In this document: positions 48,576 through 56,056 of the stretch, one piece after another | Layout: the number at the start of each line of letters is the position of its first letter | Numbering within the stretch: the first letter of the stretch is position 1 | Assembly: GCA_965209085.1 (NCBI GenBank) | Contig: OZ242376.1 | Coordinates: forward strand, 1,120,001 to 1,184,000 | Origin: Nitrosopumilaceae archaeon | GTDB lineage: Archaea > Thermoproteota > Nitrososphaeria > Nitrososphaerales > Nitrosopumilaceae | Length of the DNA: 64,000 bases | Reading direction: 5' to 3' | Notes under the pieces: generated by a model | Seen by the model: the letters and a program-made list of their open reading frames with translations, nothing else | The model's database searches: none | Told to the model about the DNA's origin: nothing | Program-made: the position numbers and the translations under genes

Positions 48576-48946
48576 GCACGTCCGATTTGCATCAGAGAGT
48601 AATATTTCTGAATTTTACCAACGTCTTGCAAAAAAAAGAGGATCATCCAAGGCCAAAGTTACAGCAGCTGCCAAGATGCTTGATATCATATTTCGTATGC
48701 TAAAGGATAGGAGTGAATTTGAAATACATCATAGTTAAAGCAACAAACCGCGGGTTAGACTTTGGGGATGTTACCCCGGCTGCATAACTGCGGTAAGCTT
48801 TAACATGTGGATAAAGATGGTTGTTGAATTAAATCCCGAATGGATAGATGTTTTTTCATCTTTTGGTTGGAAACAGACACATAGCGAAAGCCATGCCGCA
48901 TGACACAAAAAAGCAAGAAACCCTTAAAATGTATTCACATGGATAA
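48576..48946 (+). mobile_element. IS110-family 3' remnant (copy A) with its non-coding right end
   Basis: HVRFASESNISEFYQRLAKKRGSSKAKVTAAAKMLDIIFRMLK is homologous to the C-terminus of the 52320 transposase; it ends in CACATGGATAA like copy B. Confidence 0.8.
48739..48943 (+). ncRNA. Predicted IS110 bridge/seek RNA (copy A)
   Basis: Stem CCGCGG/CTGCGG with two 10-nt loop strands around a GGGG/CCCC hairpin, followed by a second loop with ATGGTTGT and ATGGATA. The scaffold is shared with copy B. Boundaries are approximate. Confidence 0.65.
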
Positions 48947-49657: not shown

Positions 49658-49733
49658 AATTTGTATTAAATTATATGATATGTAAGTATAGTGATACGCC
49701 AAAGTTCATGAGCGTTTGACCGTTTATGTATAC

Positions 49734-50992
49734 TAGATGTCTTACGTAATAAAAAATTCGGCATAACAATATATTGTGCCTAATAATTAAAGTGTTATGT
49801 TAAAAAATCACATTCTGGAATATGATTTACAGTTAATCTAAGACAATACGCCACATGTCAATTATGTGATCACCGTTTGCAGTAATTCATGTTGGAACAA
49901 TGTAGGTTTGCAAACCCACGCGACAACATGTACATCTGGTCAATATCGGGCGTGCAGTATGATGTTATAATGAGCGTGCCCACTCATTTTTGTAATTTAT
50001 TAATCCGTTTACAACCTGCACGATTCCATCATATTTATCAAATCGTGATCGGAATACATCTCGGCGTATGTTGAATTTCTTAATTCTGCTGTAAACATGT
50101 TCTATCCGTACACGTACGCTTGAGAGTAATTTATTGTGAAATATTTGTTCGCGGGTTCTCTTTTTATTTTTATATTTTTTACAGGGTATGATCGAATTTG
50201 CTTGTGGAAACGCGTCATGTATTCCCTGATATGCACTATCATAGAGATTTGAAACAGAATTCAACAGATCCTGCGTAATTTTGTTTTCACACTGCAGTGG
50301 GTGGTTCTCTTTTACAATGGCATAATCGTGTACACTGCCAGGATATGACATTGAGCTATACAAGATCATTCCGTTTCCGTTTATGACTTCTGTTGTTTTT
50401 CTGGTATGTGTTTTGTGCTTGCCAGAATAGTTTTTCTTTTGTTCTTCCTTGTCACTTGGACGCCATACCCGTTGTTCGGTAGCATCTGTAACGCAATAAT
50501 TGTCAGGAAAATTCTTTTCAAGATCTTTGGAAGATTTTATTTCTAAAACTTGTTTGTGTAGTTTATGTGGAGTTGGAAGAATATCTGCCAATATCTTTAG
50601 AATCATGCCTATGTTTCGTTGTACATTACTTTGATCCAAGTCAAACATGTATCCTATTTTTTCATACGACTGGTATTCTCGTAAATAAACAAGCGTCATT
50701 ATTAACCGATCTGGCAGTGACAAGTGATGTTTCCTGCCTCCTCCTGGACTTCGTTGTCTTTCTGCTGCATCTGCAACATCCAGCTGGCATTCAAGATATT
50801 TTTTACGTATGCCAGGAATCAAGGAATCAAATTCTTCGACCGTAAGACCGGTAAACGCCTTGAATGCACGCGGTTTTTTGCGCATTGTCGTTTCTGAGAA
50901 CACAAAACACAGTAAACATGCATGAAAATAGATCGATGTGATCTAAAAGTTTGGACTGCATGATTGAATTTCTTTATTACGCAAGGCATCTA
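49734..50992 (-). mobile_element. IS5-family (ISL2-like) element, apparently intact
   Basis: TIRs TAGATGTCTTACGTAATAAA and TAGATGCCTTGCGTAATAAA bracket a full transposase gene. Confidence 0.88.
49965..50903 (-). CDS. IS5-family DDE transposase
   Basis: FTGLTVEEF, GGGRK and an HTH, then DATEQ, YSGKHKTH, GSVHD, DSAYQG and RVRIEH. Confidence 0.9.
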   Translation of the reverse strand: MFSETTMRKKPRAFKAFTGLTVEEFDSLIPGIRKKYLECQLDVADAAERQRSPGGGRKHHLSLPDRLIMTLVYLREYQSYEKIGYMFDLDQSNVQRNIGMILKILADILPTPHKLHKQVLEIKSSKDLEKNFPDNYCVTDATEQRVWRPSDKEEQKKNYSGKHKTHTRKTTEVINGNGMILYSSMSYPGSVHDYAIVKENHPLQCENKITQDLLNSVSNLYDSAYQGIHDAFPQANSIIPCKKYKNKKRTREQIFHNKLLSSVRVRIEHVYSRIKKFNIRRDVFRSRFDKYDGIVQVVNGLINYKNEWARSL

Positions 50993-50993
50993 C

Positions 50994-52111
50994 TATACTG
51001 ACACGCAAAAGTAACTGCAATTTATGACTCTAGGCACAATGTAACCGCAAGATATTTGGATCACCTCGTGTATGAATCAATCATGAACAAAGAACATCAG
51101 GAACTGTATAATGCAAGCAGGCATGTCAAAGATGTACGAGAAAACGAAAAAATACATTTTGTAAGCATGGTCAAATACCAAAACATATCCATAGCTAAAG
51201 CTTCTGAATTATTGATGAAAAGCTACAACTGGGGCAAAGAATGCATGCAACGATATGACGAGCTTGGATTAGACGGTCTTAAAATCCTGCCCAAATCGGG
51301 CAGGCCTTTATTATTATCAAATATACGATTTAAAAAAATTATTGACATGACAAGACGAGAGAACGGTTCAGTTGATCCAAAACAGGTAATGCACAACATT
51401 AAACGCAAAACCGGAGTAAAATATCACATATCAAATATCAAATATCAGAAAAAGACTCCACAAATTCTCATGTCAGCAAGGCTCCAAAAAGAATTCATGT
51501 CAATGCAGCGCCAGCATCAGTCTGCTACAACGGGTCACAAAACACTAGGCGTCAAATACGCCTACTTGAAGAGCGTGGATTTGCAGTAGGCGTTCAGGAT
51601 GAATGTATAATAAAATACGATTCATTATCCGGCAAGAAACTCTGGATTGAAATAAGCAAAAATTGTTACGTAAAATCCACAGGTTCTCACAAAAAAGTTG
51701 TTGTCTTTGGAGTACTCTTATAGGATGGCAGGCAGATGTTTGCAAGCTTTGATTTGTTTGATGCAAAACCATTTCTCAAATTTTTAAAAATGGCTCATCA
51801 AAAATTTGGAAAAATTTGCATGATTGTGAATAAAGCTGCACAACACAGAAAATCCAAAATTATTAAAAAATATATCTCCGAGCACAAAGATGAGGTAAAG
51901 CTTTTGTTTTTCCCAAGTTTACCGTTTCTGAGTGCCGTTGAAGAATGCTGGCATCAGGCCAAACGTGTGTTGGTCGTCTCTGAATATTATGAAACATTTG
52001 AGAATATGAAATACGCAATTTCAGAATATTTTAGAACTGTACGATTCAAAGTATCAATCATGGATTTTATTATGAGAAAAGCTGCAGAATGCAGTTACTT
52101 TTGATCCGCAG
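50994..52111 (+). mobile_element. Decayed IS630-family element
   Basis: HTH ORF at 51056 (GLDGLKILPKSGRP) and DDE fragments (VQDEC; MIVNKAAQH with D>N; PFLSAVEECW); inverted repeat CAAAAGTAACTGCA at both ends. Confidence 0.8.
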
Positions 52112-52114
52112 TTA

Positions 52115-52319
52115 TCCATGTGCCTCTTTTTTAAGTATTTCATGCGTTTTTCCATATTTTTGTACAGTATCCACTAGGGGCTATTTTTCCAATTAAAGAA
52201 TGAGAGACATATATCCATTCGGGGCATTATCCCCACAACCATCTTCATCCACTTGTTAGAGCTTACCGCAGTTAGAATCTCGGAGCACTATCTCCATATA
52301 CTGCGCCGCGGCCGTGCAA
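52115..52319 (-). ncRNA. Predicted IS110 bridge/seek RNA (copy B)
   Basis: Loop 1 is CCGCGG-CGCAGTATAT-GGAG/CTCC-GAGATTCTAA-CTGCGG. Loop 2 is AGATGGTTGT-GGGG/CCCC-GAATGGATAT, which matches the donor junction ATGGATAACCAT. Confidence 0.75.
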
Positions 52320-53441
52320 CTAACTGTAATTTTGTTCAAAATCCCGATTCTCCTTTAGCAACCAGTAAATCACCTTTAGCATTTTTCCAGCTGCTGCAAC
52401 TGCAGCCTTAGAGTTTCCTCTCTTTCTTGCAAGCCGCTTGTAAAATATTGAAATGTCACTTTTTGGTGCATGCAGTACGTGCGAGCGTATTGCCTCAACT
52501 AGAACCCACCTGAGCATTCTGCTTCCTCTTTTTGTTATGTGTCCATGATGTACGAGATTGGCAGAATTGCGGACCGATGGTGCAAGTCCTGCGTATGATT
52601 TTAGCTTTTCAGGATCAGAGAATCTCTCAACATTATCAATCTCAGATGCAATCGTTAATGCCGTAAAATCTGCAATTCCGGGGACAGTTTTGAGTATATC
52701 GGCATACCGGCTTGTACGTGCACTCTTGTAGATCAGTACATTGGCTTTTTGTATCTGATTGTCATAAAGGCCAACGGATGCAAGAAAACCGTCTATTCGA
52801 TAGTCGTTTATGGCTTAAAGGCTTGCAATGTATTTGTACGAAAACGTACGTCCTGGAATTTTAATTCCTTTTTGGAGCAGTATTCCATGTATGGAATTTT
52901 TCATATTTGTTCTCGCCTGTACAAGTTTGTGCCTGTATCGGACCAGTTGTCTTTGCTCTACAATCTTTTTACCTGGAACATGGCACTCGTTGATATATCC
53001 TCCTCGCAGCAAATTTGCCAAAATTTGCGCATCAACTTTGTCTGTTTTTTTAGTGGATGCGGCAATGGCCTTTGTCTGATATGGGTTTGAGAGAATCACA
53101 TCAAGATTTAGTCTATCGGTCATGTATCGGAACAGTCCGTACCAGACAGATGATGACTCCATTACCATCTTTGAACCCTCTGGTATGCTTGTTTGGAAAA
53201 ACTTTCTAATGTCCGCGTGTCTGTTTTCAACACGCGTGTTTAAGATCAGTTTGCCTTTGCCGTCAATTGCTGCTATCTGGAGAAATTCTTTATGGGCGTC
53301 AATTCCAACAAACATGGATTTCCTATTAAATGCCCTAGTGTTTTTGTTTGCATTTTGGGCTTTGTTTTTGGGCTTGCGTTTGTTGACTAATACGGATTTA
53401 TCATTTAAGCAACCATCTGAATTCCTTGATTTCTTGGGCAC
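52320..53441 (-). pseudogene. IS110 recombinase interrupted by one in-frame TAA at 52815
   Basis: GIDAHK, MESS and KTDKVDA (DEDD); the same frame continues after the stop with TVPGI, YAGLAPSVRNSA, GHITKRGS and AAAGKML. Confidence 0.88.
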
Positions 53442-53687
53442 ATATGGTTAGGTATGCTACGTTGACATTTTAGTATTATTGCTATTGCATTAATTTCATT
53501 AATCATACCAGGCACACATTTAGCATATGTGTTTTATTCAGAATCAGATGATCTATACAATGGTGATCAATACAATACAGATCAGTTTAAAGATAAATTA
53601 TTAGCATTAGGCACATTTTTGCCATTTCTCAGAAATGATATTTTTCAAGTTGAATTAACATACGGTTATGATGCAGTGGGATTTTAT

Positions 53688-53929
53688 GTAAATGGCTAAT
53701 CCTACAAACCCCTCTCAGAGGATTTTAACCAATTCTGTGTGCGGATTGATACCCCTCATACGCATGGTCTCATAAAAGGCCAGAATAACACCAAACCTTC
53801 TCATGCCTTTTGCATTTTTCAGTCTTCCCTATTCCTTGCGGTACGGTGCGACAGGACATATTGCACGCTCGGCTGCATTGTTTGTCGGTGCCATTCCAGG
53901 ATGCTACAAAAACGTAAACAAATTGGGTG
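53688..53929 (-). mobile_element. IS66-family right-end remnant (subtype 1)
   Basis: GTAAATGGCTAATCC terminus; DNA homologous to 42800-42945 and 61870-62114. Confidence 0.75.
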
Positions 53930-54379
53930 GGAGGGATCAAAGCTAATTTGTCCTAACTGACTTGGTTTCCATGGCTTTACCCTTTGATTTTTTGCTTTCA
54001 TTATAATCGAGGTTAACATTTGGTGTGATCTGGCAAGATTTCCTCGTCGTTTGTGCTTTGTTGATTTCATTAAATTGACTCTGATCTACTGATTCAAAGC
54101 TTTTTCGGTCATTTACGTTCATGATCTAAAAGCTTTATGGTATGTTTTTGATTTTACTCATGGACAGAGCTACGTTCTGCCTAAATCATAAATTGAAGTT
54201 ATTTTTGCGCGTTAGTAAAGTTTGCCCGCAAATCAAATAGCACGTTTTTGTGCACACGGCCACGTATAATATTCTGTTTTTTGCCATGTATGTGACATTT
54301 TGATTTATTTTGTTGTCTGTTTGAGAACATTATTCACTATGCGTTTTGATCATGACAACACCATAATCAAAATTGTATG

Positions 54380-56056
54380 TCACTGTGATTGATTATGCAT
54401 AAACTCTAATGGCATTATGAAACTGGTTCTTGTTGGAATATTTAATTTCAGAATATTCCATTTTTTCCAATCATCTAAATATGCACGTTGTAGGATAAGA
54501 GCTTGTTGTTTAACGTTGATGGCAATTGTATAATTAATATTACAGTCTAGCGCTTTATCAAAACAATTAATTGCATCATTAAAATTTAATTTTAATATAG
54601 AAAATAATCCTTTTTCTGTATATAATTGTGGATCACTTGGATTAATTTTAATCGCTGAATCATAAAATTTTAATGTATTTACATCATCATTCATTTGCAT
54701 ATACATTCTAGCTATTCCAATATAAGCATGTGATTGGTTTGGATTAATTTCTAAAACTTTTTTATGAAAATTGATTGCATTTTCAAATTCCATGATCCTA
54801 GATAATGCCATTGCATGCAGCATATATGCCTCCTCATATTTTGGATCTAGTTTTACCATTAATTTACAATATTTTATAACATCATGAAATTTATTTTGTC
54901 GATATAAAATATTACATTTTCCTGCATACGCAAATATTTCATTAGGATCTAACTTTAAAGCCTCATCGTAACATGCTAATGATGCATCGAATTCTTTGTG
55001 ATTTAGTAATAATGTGCCTTTTGCAATATGTGCTATTATGTAAGTTGGTTCTAAGTGGATTATTTTATCATAACATTCTAAAGATTCTTCTTTACGATTA
55101 AGTTGTTTTAAAGCTCGTGCTTTTCTTATATATGCAAATATGTATGTTGCATCTAATTCTATAGCTTTATCATAACATGCTAGTGATTCATCAAATTTAT
55201 TCATAGCTTGTAATGCATCTCCTTGATACACATACGCGTCTATTATCGATGAATCCATATCTATTATATTTGTGAAACATGTGTACGCCTCGGAATAATT
55301 TAATAAATCGTATAATGCATTTCCTTTATGCATATATGAAGATATGTCATTAGGTTTTAATTCTAACGATTTATCATAATACATTATAGCTATAGAATAT
55401 TTTTTATTTTTATAATATTCATTACCTTTTATTCTACATTTGTTATTATCTTTCATCATGTTAACTTCCTTCATAATAGATTCTAATACATCCTGTGGCT
55501 CTTTTAGATTTTGTGTTGTTTTAATATCTAATACATCTGATTTTATATTTTCAATACCAGACATCATATTAACTATTATTTCCTTATTATTATTATAATT
55601 ATAATGTGATGCCATAGAATATGATGCAGATTCAGGATTTTTTTCAGCATAAATTATATGATCTTTCAATAATTGTTTTTCGTTAACAAATGATTCTGAA
55701 TCCATATCTATAGATATTATTCTTATAGTTGTTATGTCAAATGGAATATTGGTCGACATATTTTTTCTTTTAACAATTATTGTTGGTTTAATTTGTGCAT
55801 GCCTAAGCCCTAATTCATACATGACATTAGGATTATTTCCCGAAATATCTGCAATAACTATATCTGACATGACTAATTTTTCCATAATTTGGTTTGGTAA
55901 CGATCCCGGTTGATTTATTTTATCAGATCTTAACACAACATCATAATTTAATTCTTGTAAAACTGGAGAAAATATTTTATTAAATATTATATCGGATGTT
56001 ATACGAATATTACTTTCTTCTTTATCTAACGGTGATATGACGAAACAAGATTTCAA
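54380..56056 (-). CDS. Nucleoside 2-deoxyribosyltransferase-like (NDT) domain plus coiled coil plus about 9 TPRs
   Basis: KSCFVISP, RSD and SDIVIADISGNNPNVMYELGLRHA...PFDI are typical of NDT-like effector domains; TPR periodicity starts at about aa 205. Confidence 0.82.
   Translation of the reverse strand: MKSCFVISPLDKEESNIRITSDIIFNKIFSPVLQELNYDVVLRSDKINQPGSLPNQIMEKLVMSDIVIADISGNNPNVMYELGLRHAQIKPTIIVKRKNMSTNIPFDITTIRIISIDMDSESFVNEKQLLKDHIIYAEKNPESASYSMASHYNYNNNKEIIVNMMSGIENIKSDVLDIKTTQNLKEPQDVLESIMKEVNMMKDNNKCRIKGNEYYKNKKYSIAIMYYDKSLELKPNDISSYMHKGNALYDLLNYSEAYTCFTNIIDMDSSIIDAYVYQGDALQAMNKFDESLACYDKAIELDATYIFAYIRKARALKQLNRKEESLECYDKIIHLEPTYIIAHIAKGTLLLNHKEFDASLACYDEALKLDPNEIFAYAGKCNILYRQNKFHDVIKYCKLMVKLDPKYEEAYMLHAMALSRIMEFENAINFHKKVLEINPNQSHAYIGIARMYMQMNDDVNTLKFYDSAIKINPSDPQLYTEKGLFSILKLNFNDAINCFDKALDCNINYTIAINVKQQALILQRAYLDDWKKWNILKLNIPTRTSFIMPLEFMHNQSQ

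Follow-up and report, generated by a model that had tools for sequence, protein, structure and literature searches.

A predicted two-loop guide RNA in an archaeal IS1111-type element found at the ends of IS630-like elements

What brings an archaeal insertion sequence to the end of another transposable element, and how could it have spread if its recombinase gene is broken by a stop codon? These questions are raised by a 1.34-kb IS110-family element on the minus strand, at positions 52113-53450, of a 64,000-nucleotide stretch of contig OZ242376.1 (hereafter the window) from a Nitrosopumilaceae archaeon. The original prediction, made from the letters of the window, described an archaeal bridge recombinase system, that is, one using a two-loop RNA that pairs with donor and target, with a TA(A) core and a gene inactivated only by the TAA codon at 52815. 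From a comparison of the element with its sister copies and relatives, we consider, with a probability of about 85%, that it is one of four copies of an IS1111-type element with a predicted two-loop guide RNA, in which the donor loop would read the joined element ends and the target loop the end of an IS630-like element.

The element, its ends and the site it occupies

The recombinase gene is the one long frame of the element. It runs over 373 codons from a GTG (53441) to a TAG (52322-52320), and the TAA at 52815-52817 is its sole interruption. With this codon read as X, the protein matches PF01548 (91.9 bits, residues 45-190) and PF02371 (79.1 bits, residues 248-326), and it scores 216.8 bits against the profile NF033542, 'IS110 family RNA-guided transposase', which has a cut-off of 140. 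The host genome is archaeal, its small-subunit ribosomal RNA scoring 1472 bits on the archaeal Rfam model vs 1107 bits on the bacterial one, and the related loci in the species collection came from Nitrososphaerota in 11 of 11 cases. The recombinase starts with a basic N-terminal extension of about 42 residues, which is conserved between subfamilies. The serine motif of its C-terminal domain is GLAPSVRNSA, both in the subfamily of the window copy (W-type) and in intact paralogues, and the residue following the motif serine is thus A, not G. A conserved serine in a G(L)-P----S(G) motif, with TA as an occasional variant, is described in Siddiquee 2024 (PMC11187229).

At the left end, just 7 nt separate the core from the GTG, and at the right end a non-coding stretch of about 205 nt extends from the stop codon to the right terminus (52115). 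The subterminal inverted repeats, CCAT(AT)GTGCC on the left and GGCACATGG on the right, have 9 matching bases and a 2-nt bulge and are inset 3 nt from the core. Subterminal repeats, a short left end and a long right non-coding end are marks of the IS1111 group (Durrant 2024, PMC11208160; Siddiquee 2024, PMC11187229), for which repeats of 7-17 bp and transposases of 330-350 residues have been reported (Siddiquee 2024, PMC11187229). By the features compared, we class 52113-53450 as an IS1111-type element of the IS110 family. Its parts and its target are as follows.

53449..53450, minus strand: left TA core copy, at the junction of left target and left end; TA alone is common to both junctions in the 4 copies, and a single TA stands at empty IS630-like ends
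53437..53447, minus strand: left subterminal inverted repeat CCATATGTGCC, which holds the GTG start (53441-53439) and pairs with GGCACATGG
52818..53441, minus strand: recombinase codons 1-208, with the basic N-terminal extension and the DEDD/RuvC-like domain PF01548 (frame and profile matches)
52815..52817, minus strand: in-frame TAA, present unchanged in each of the 4 copies; the intact orthologue L043 has K at this position and the intact paralogue p157 has R
52320..52814, minus strand: last 164 codons of the recombinase, with PF02371, the GLAPSVRNSA serine motif and the TAG stop (52322-52320) (frame and profile matches)
52116..52124, minus strand: right subterminal inverted repeat GGCACATGG, with the element terminus at 52115 (comparison of copies)
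52113..52114, minus strand: right TA core copy (comparison of copies)
50993..52112, plus strand: IS630-like element that serves as the target; the end of its right inverted repeat, ...TGCAGTTACTTTTGATCCGCAG(TA), meets the right end of the IS110 element, and one base of the terminal TA is missing here

The left junction reads cc-TA-ACCATATGTG from 53450 downward on the minus strand. The right end, ...GGCACATGGA, stops at 52115 and is followed by TA (52114-52113) and A (52112). The genome (1.69 Mb, one contig) contains four copies of the element, of about 98% identity, in the window and at 856, 666 and 730 kb. In the other three, the right junction reads GGA-TA-TACTGCGG; only TA is shared at both junctions, and TA is therefore the core. 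In the window copy, one T of the flank is missing (GGATAACTGCGG), which gives the appearance of a shared TAA. TAA as the core is ruled out by the three sister copies, so that of the predicted TA(A) the TA stands and the longer form turns out to be peculiar to the window copy.

The left flanks of the four copies are all different, and the right flank is the same in 4 of 4. This constant flank belongs to an IS630-like element of 1.12 kb, with fragments of DDE_3 and HTH_32, and is its right inverted repeat; all four copies lie in one orientation against that repeat. The IS630-like element is itself flanked by TA and is present in six copies in the genome, the outer flanks of which all differ; in four of the six, the right end is occupied by the IS110 element. 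Where right ends are empty, the sequence is N-TA-TACTGCGG, with a single TA, and occupied right ends read N-TA-[ACCATATGTG ... CACATGGA]-TA-TACTGCGG.

The IS630-like gene at 50993-52112 (plus strand) is fragmented into a 177-residue HTH open reading frame and a 122-residue DDE_3 open reading frame, and its inverted repeats begin with TACTG. A repeat of about 1.27 kb (~49729-50996), of which at least 4 near-identical copies are present in the genome (99.5-97.9%), abuts the IS630-like element, this part of the window being a nest of transposable elements.

The predicted guide RNA and its two loops

A bridge (seek) RNA, about 135 nt long and having two internal loops, is predicted to be encoded in the right end. 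We aligned 12 diverse right ends and derived an RNAalifold consensus, which consists of five helices with 26 pairs, laid out as an outer stem, a stem and hairpin for the first internal loop, and a stem and hairpin for the second. In this alignment, 96.8% of the cells are paired and both sides have changed in 15 of the 26 pairs. This level of pairing and covariation was reached in 0 of 500 shuffles, and controls with slid partners were paired to 31-44%. These compensatory changes strongly support the five-helix structure. The parts of the RNA are as follows, all on the minus strand.

52190..52333: bridge (seek) RNA region, overlapping the last codons of the gene (covariance model R1, 130.6 bits)
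52296..52306: target loop, 5' strand GCGCAGUAUAU, which complements A-TA-TACTGCG (core and right repeat of the IS630-like element); it matches its own target in 9 of 9 positions, the off-diagonal mean being 5.4
52282..52295: target-loop hairpin GGAG-AUAGUG-CUCC, helix 3 (fold and consensus)
52271..52281: target loop, 3' strand GAGAUUCUAAC, with the left-target guide AGAUUC followed by an invariant UAA (core UA and A)
52235..52245: donor loop, 5' strand AAGAUGGUUGU, which pairs with A-TA-ACCAT (core and left end), one pair being G:T
52221..52234: donor-loop hairpin GGGG-AUAAUG-CCCC, helix 5, with compensatory GGGA/UCCC in paralogues
52210..52220: donor loop, 3' strand GAAUGGAUAUA, a copy of right end and core (ATGGA-TA), with concordance in 12 of 12 elements

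A covariance model made from the 12-element alignment recovered 7 elements that had not been in the seed, with 57-112 bits. It found 20 copies in the genome of the window; of 151 genomes sampled from the phylum, 4 had matches, and these 4 belong to the window's family. Relatives were present in 30 of 201 sampled genomes of that taxonomic family, its own counted. One of the matches (105 bits) lies in the window itself, at 48725-48868 on the plus strand; it belongs to a right-end fragment of a paralogous type (p-type, see below), with a right end at about 48945 that adjoins AGGTCTAATG, and just the 3' part of its recombinase gene is left. Between the donor loop and the right terminus, at 52150-52180 (minus strand) and ahead of a TATA-like box described below, most right ends keep a hairpin ..YAGC-GAAA-GCYA.. 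with a GNRA-like loop, which is diverged in the window copy.

In the second internal loop, AUGGUUGU (52242-52235) and AUGGAUA (52218-52212) flank the hairpin at 52234-52221. In 12 of 12 elements, the 3' strand has the same sequence as the last bases of the right end followed by TA, and three variants of the right end (..ATGGA, ..ATAGA and ..ATGGG) are each mirrored in it. The 5' strand, AUGGU.., complements the start of the left end, ACCAT; in the element L044, ACTAT goes with AUAG. As a control for chance, we shuffled the 195-nt non-coding end and looked for a 7-mer equal to right end plus core, at most 45 nt downstream of an 8-nt complement (G:T allowed) of core plus left end; this donor pattern, as originally proposed, arose in 2 of 20,000 mononucleotide shuffles. 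All this is what would be expected if the donor loop reads the joined element ends, and it agrees with the original prediction: the strings that it had named are all present on the minus strand, its donor-loop guides match the joined ends, the donor-loop bases vary together with the termini, the opposite of which had been named as a refuting outcome, and homologous ends support the fold.

A second loop of like geometry had also been announced, though with no target assigned to it, and it is present at 52306-52271, around the hairpin GGAG-AUAGUG-CUCC. In the window, its 5' strand CGCAGUAUA(U) is complementary at every position to (A)TATACTGCG, where TATACTGCG consists of TA and the initial seven bases of the IS630-like repeat (TA + TACTGCG). 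This complementarity would explain why all four copies are found in one orientation at that repeat. Across the 12 elements, the 5' strand matched its own right flank at 7.29 of 9 positions and the flanks of the others at 5.41 of 9 (0 of 20,000 permutations). For the 3' strand, the 6 nt that precede UAA matched the element's own left flank at 3.7 of 6 positions and those of the others at 1.34 of 6 (n = 10; 0 of 20,000 permutations), and the UAA itself was invariant in 12 of 12. In the orthologue L043, from a sister species, flank and guide differ together from those of the window, the right flank being TAGTGGTGG and the guide GCCACUAUAU. Among the relatives, the strands of the first loop vary, and those of the second change hardly at all, just like the element ends. 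In both loops, the arm that complements the top strand comes first, on the 5' side, and is followed by the arm with the sequence of that strand. The first loop thus appears to read the insertion site as the donor loop reads the ends. In the window, its 5' strand would direct insertion to TA plus the right inverted repeat of the IS630-like element.

We considered the possibility that there is no guide RNA, the matches to the ends being features of the DNA (internal repeats bound by the recombinase, or something that the inverted repeats entail), with the stem-loops serving only as a 3' untranslated region or a terminator. Inverted-repeat ends do make short internal look-alikes easier to find, and the fold energy of the 3' end is unremarkable. 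Yet, the compensatory changes that keep the five helices in 12 elements indicate a constraint at the level of RNA, both arms of the first loop covary with flanking DNA outside the element, and the strand logic (one arm complementary, one identical) as well as the arm order agree with the published IS1111 seekRNA. We regard this explanation as highly improbable.

Another possibility was that it is the IS630-like element that inserts at TA beside the right end of the IS110 element, or that both move as a composite. IS630-type elements insert at TA, and a TA is present at the IS110 boundary. However, a 9-10-nt complement of the IS630-like repeat plus TA sits in the IS110 RNA, and unoccupied IS630-like right ends with the same TA-TACTGCGG exist. 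Furthermore, the outer flanks of every IS110/IS630-like pair differ on both sides, and the end pair of neither transposase encloses the composite. The IS630-like copy in the window is closer to an unoccupied copy (96.0%) than to the other occupied ones (94.3-94.9%), which, together with the differing far flanks of the IS630-like copies, argues that the IS110 insertions were independent events. That the IS630-like element was the one to arrive second, or that the two travelled together, is scarcely credible.

Several observations weigh against the interpretation of the element as guided by a two-loop RNA. The single-sequence fold is no more stable than shuffled sequences (z = +0.98; 167 of 200 shuffles at least as stable), and an Rfam scan of 51000-54500 with E up to 10 gave only matches at the level of chance, the best with 20 bits against a cut-off of 140. 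The covariance model had no match in two haloarchaeal loci and one Klebsiella IS110-family locus. In the donor loop, the pairing of the 5' strand with the left end is broken by an A:C mismatch in L043 and L045, and among six non-seed elements with a located right end, the 3' strand agrees over at least 7 contiguous nt in L032, L053 and L054, over 6 nt in L052, and imperfectly in L031 and L051, which look decayed. In the target loop, the W-type left-target arm AGAUUC matches its flank in 1 of 6 nt, meaning that only one arm plus the core is matched. The 9-mer TATACTGCG is present at 18 further, unoccupied places. In p157, p476, L045 and L047, the best pairing of the 5' strand lies 2 nt further into the right target than it does in the other elements and in the donor loop.

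Some of these points can be accounted for. Since fold energy is uninformative here, it is the comparison with relatives that supports the structure; the single-sequence fold of the 3' end recovers the first loop and misses the closing helix of the second. The model also found no match beside more distant thaumarchaeal recombinases, and its silence at the haloarchaeal and Klebsiella loci means that the argument for homology to the characterised bacterial seekRNAs is one of architecture. The poor match of the left arm is understandable because the IS630-like element had landed at unrelated TA sites; on a guided insertion at its end, the left-target arm would be expected hardly to match. A preprint on 'half-match' recombination, considered as support for the unmatched left arm, was set aside, 'half' there denoting one loop of the RNA and not a single arm. 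Finally, the 18 unoccupied sites indicate that a match to the guide is insufficient for the choice of site. A further factor must favour the IS630-like ends, for example selection against insertions into genes or a structural feature of the repeat.

The shared stop codon, paralogous recombinases and the circle

The TAA is found with identical context in 4 of 4 W-type copies, and the corresponding codon specifies K in the orthologue L043 and R in paralogues. Further damage is present in the other copies: the one at 856 kb lacks 1 nt in codon 10, the one at 666 kb lacks 2 nt near codon 239, and the one at 730 kb has an insertion of about 1.1 kb. The claim that the element is inactivated only by TAA at 52815 therefore holds for the frame in the window and not for the subfamily, in which the stop is common to the four copies and the other three carry additional lesions. 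No intact W-type gene exists in this genome, yet four independent sites are occupied.

The same genome contains a paralogous family, p-type, with 58% protein identity to W-type and about 15 right ends. Two of its recombinases, p157 (contig G000:C1, 156522-157637) and p694, are intact, and their ends and donor-loop guides are the same as those of W-type. Given this identity and the presence of TAA in all four W-type copies, we favour mobilisation in trans: the spread of W-type was probably driven by the intact paralogous recombinase, whose elements share its ends and donor-loop guides. A seekRNA need not be confined to closely related transposases (Siddiquee 2024, PMC11187229). The intact genes of p157 and p694, and that of L043 in the sister species, also make the repair of the stop codon, proposed originally as the way to an assay, unnecessary.

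We considered the alternative that the copies inserted while their recombinase was intact, and that TAA arose once, later, and spread by gene conversion, in which case there was no mobilisation in trans and the subfamily is now dead. A 206-nt stretch around TAA (element positions 470-675) is invariant in the four copies, which show 23 substitutions over the 1122-nt gene. These divide into 11 synonymous and 12 non-synonymous ones, and into 5 and 3 after TAA, as if part of the divergence had taken place under selection on the protein. The two ratios fit poorly with simple neutral decay after an ancestral stop and count against a spread of copies that already carried it. The numbers are small, however, and with mostly transitions the synonymous excess is marginal by our own informal estimate. 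Furthermore, the pA subfamily of the p-type likewise shares a nonsense codon at different sites, p476 and p963 (contig G000:C1, 476697-477812 and 963210-964322; loci L008 and L010) both having an in-frame TGA at codon 80 and the guide ..GAGUUU, so that the same coincidence would be needed twice. Late conversion is, in our view, rather unlikely.

A third explanation is that TAA is tolerated, read-through or recoding yielding enough full-length recombinase for the element to be autonomous. TAA is indeed the only interruption in the window copy, it has been kept in all copies, and the synonymous bias persists downstream of it. On the other side, the orthologue has an ordinary K codon at this position, related multi-copy families have their stops elsewhere (codon 80 in pA and about codon 57 in four G176 copies, two of them checked individually), and the other three W-type copies contain additional frameshifts or an insertion. 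The differing positions indicate that there is no conserved recoding site, which disposes of a programmed stop. A split protein was likewise rejected, as there is no in-frame start after TAA until the last 65 codons. Autonomy through tolerance of the stop appears improbable, and mobilisation in trans is the explanation that we retain.

How would a recombinase gene with a left end of only 7 nt be expressed? The following feature bears on this.

52127..52134, minus strand: outward-facing TATA-like box TTAAAAAA, separated from the right terminus by 12 nt; all 16 right ends inspected have an A/T box in the corresponding position (to within 1 nt), a weak one in one case

These boxes (TTTAAAAA, TTATAAA and the like) end 12-13 nt from the terminus, and the GTG within the left inverted repeat was in frame, and the frame open, in all 13 relatives examined, five further elements being outside this count. 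Excision to a circle would place the centre of the TATA-like box about 26 nt upstream of the GTG. This is the usual distance of an archaeal TATA box from the transcription start, and leaderless mRNAs are common in archaea. The box and the GTG, judging from their positions, would thus form an archaeal promoter only in the circle, and a leaderless transcript of recombinase plus RNA would come mainly from the circle, the guide RNA being part of the same transcript or processed from it. In bacterial IS110 circles, a sigma-70 promoter is reconstituted across the junction (Durrant 2024, PMC11208160), and the junction with its TATA box looks like the archaeal counterpart.

The 11 sequencing runs listed for the stretch included no RNA run. 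Contigs from 4 DNA runs, covering 51700-53900, showed no joint of right end to left end; since contigs drop rare forms, this speaks neither for nor against the circle. Loose contig ends at 52110/52112 and 53450/53454 proved to be flanks of other copies or empty IS630-like ends. Contig joints of the 'opposite strands' kind at 53284-53424 match two inverted left-end fragments elsewhere in the genome; these W-type fragments lie at G000:C1:672890-673087.

The p-type elements have other targets than W-type, TTATGCA-TA-(A/C)GGTCTA or ..-TA-AACTCTA. The motif TTATGCATA(A/C)GGTCTA is the terminal motif of abundant repeats, and of its 137 matches in the genome (at most 3 mismatches), a few are p-type right-end junctions. 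Copies with the guide ..GAGUUU are found at CTCTA sites in 4 of 4 cases, and the 10 cases with ..GACUUU are divided between GGTC(T/C)A sites (6) and CTCTA sites (4). Several families, of short palindromic repeats and of IS-like elements, terminate in the motif TTATGCAT(A/G)(A/C)(G/A)(G/C)TCTA (e.g. at G000:C1 245769, 546373 and 802008), and p-type IS110 copies insert at the TA inside it.

A wider picture can be drawn tentatively from these data. The genome may harbour a guild of bridge-RNA elements that share their ends and donor loop and differ in target loops, aimed at the IS630-like repeat, at GGTCTA-type ends and at CTCTA-type ends. One subfamily would be intact and two would be nonsense-bearing RNA hitch-hikers that program one recombinase in trans, with leaderless mRNA made from a TATA promoter found only in the circle. 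We consider this combination possible, though we would not wager on the whole of it.

Relation to known elements

The kind of system is already known, having been described in 2024, and its archaeal features are what makes this member instructive. The element resembles the IS1111 seekRNA elements ISEc11, ISKpn4 and ISPa11 in its recombinase with DEDD and serine domains, its subterminal repeats, an RNA downstream of the gene, and a very short left end combined with a long right non-coding end. Like them, it has the segment complementary to the top strand 5' of the one for the bottom strand, with matches that overlap at the core, and it is inserted site- and orientation-specifically with nothing duplicated beyond the core. 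In IS1111 seekRNAs, the top-strand guide lies 5' of the bottom-strand guide, the reverse of IS110 (Siddiquee 2024, PMC11187229; Durrant 2024, PMC11208160). In contrast to these three elements, it has an archaeal host, and its protein is longer (373 vs 330-350 residues) owing to the basic N-terminal extension. The serine motif has SA here and SG or TG there, the RNA has no Rfam match, and the outward box in the right end is TATA-like here and a bacterial -35 box there.

With IS621 and ISCro4, bridge recombinases of the IS110 group with solved structures (8WT6, 9T56), it shares a two-loop RNA with a variable target loop ahead of a conserved donor loop, the presence in each loop of an arm for either DNA strand, with overlap at a dinucleotide core, and a circle-junction promoter, which is a prediction here. 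Unlike the present RNA, that of IS621 is encoded in the left end, upstream of the gene, with reversed arm order; its core is CT, as opposed to TA. From the IS621 and ISCro4 proteins, the C-terminal domain alone aligns, with E values of 2e-8 and 7e-6.

The closest annotated relatives in the plasmid collection are ISHvo9, on pHV4 of Haloferax volcanii (32% identity), and an IS110-family element of Halorubrum (36% identity). Both are archaeal members of the IS110 family too, and the RNA model finds nothing beside either. No clear target logo is reported for 'Hvo9' (Siddiquee 2024, PMC11187229). Archaeal IS110 recombinases as such are known, 662 being counted in one survey, and bridge RNAs were predicted for 93% of the IS1111 entries of ISfinder (Durrant 2024, PMC11208160). 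A literature search, with the supplementary tables of Durrant 2024 and Siddiquee 2024 outside its scope, returned no paper in which this thaumarchaeal RNA family, the use of other elements' terminal repeats as its targets, or a junction promoter with a TATA box is described. Elements that insert at the terminal inverted repeat of another transposable element were reportedly known earlier.

Bridge and seek RNAs have been worked out in bacterial elements, and a locus with about 20 sister copies, both loops of which can be read directly from natural insertions, offers a clean archaeal example. It also puts on offer compact pairs of recombinase and RNA with a TA core and AT-rich targets, intact genes among them. 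Target loops appear to have been reprogrammed naturally between orthologues, and several RNAs may be using one enzyme. If the junction promoter is real, it would be the idea of the circle junction implemented anew with archaeal transcription signals. For annotation, the guide would explain the pile-up of elements at the ends of other transposable elements in archaea of the ammonia-oxidising type. The picture of how the IS110 family works is left unchanged.

A loose pattern search revealed, incidentally, a long array of near-identical segments at about 594-630 kb of G000:C1, in which the same 50-nt contexts recur every few kb.

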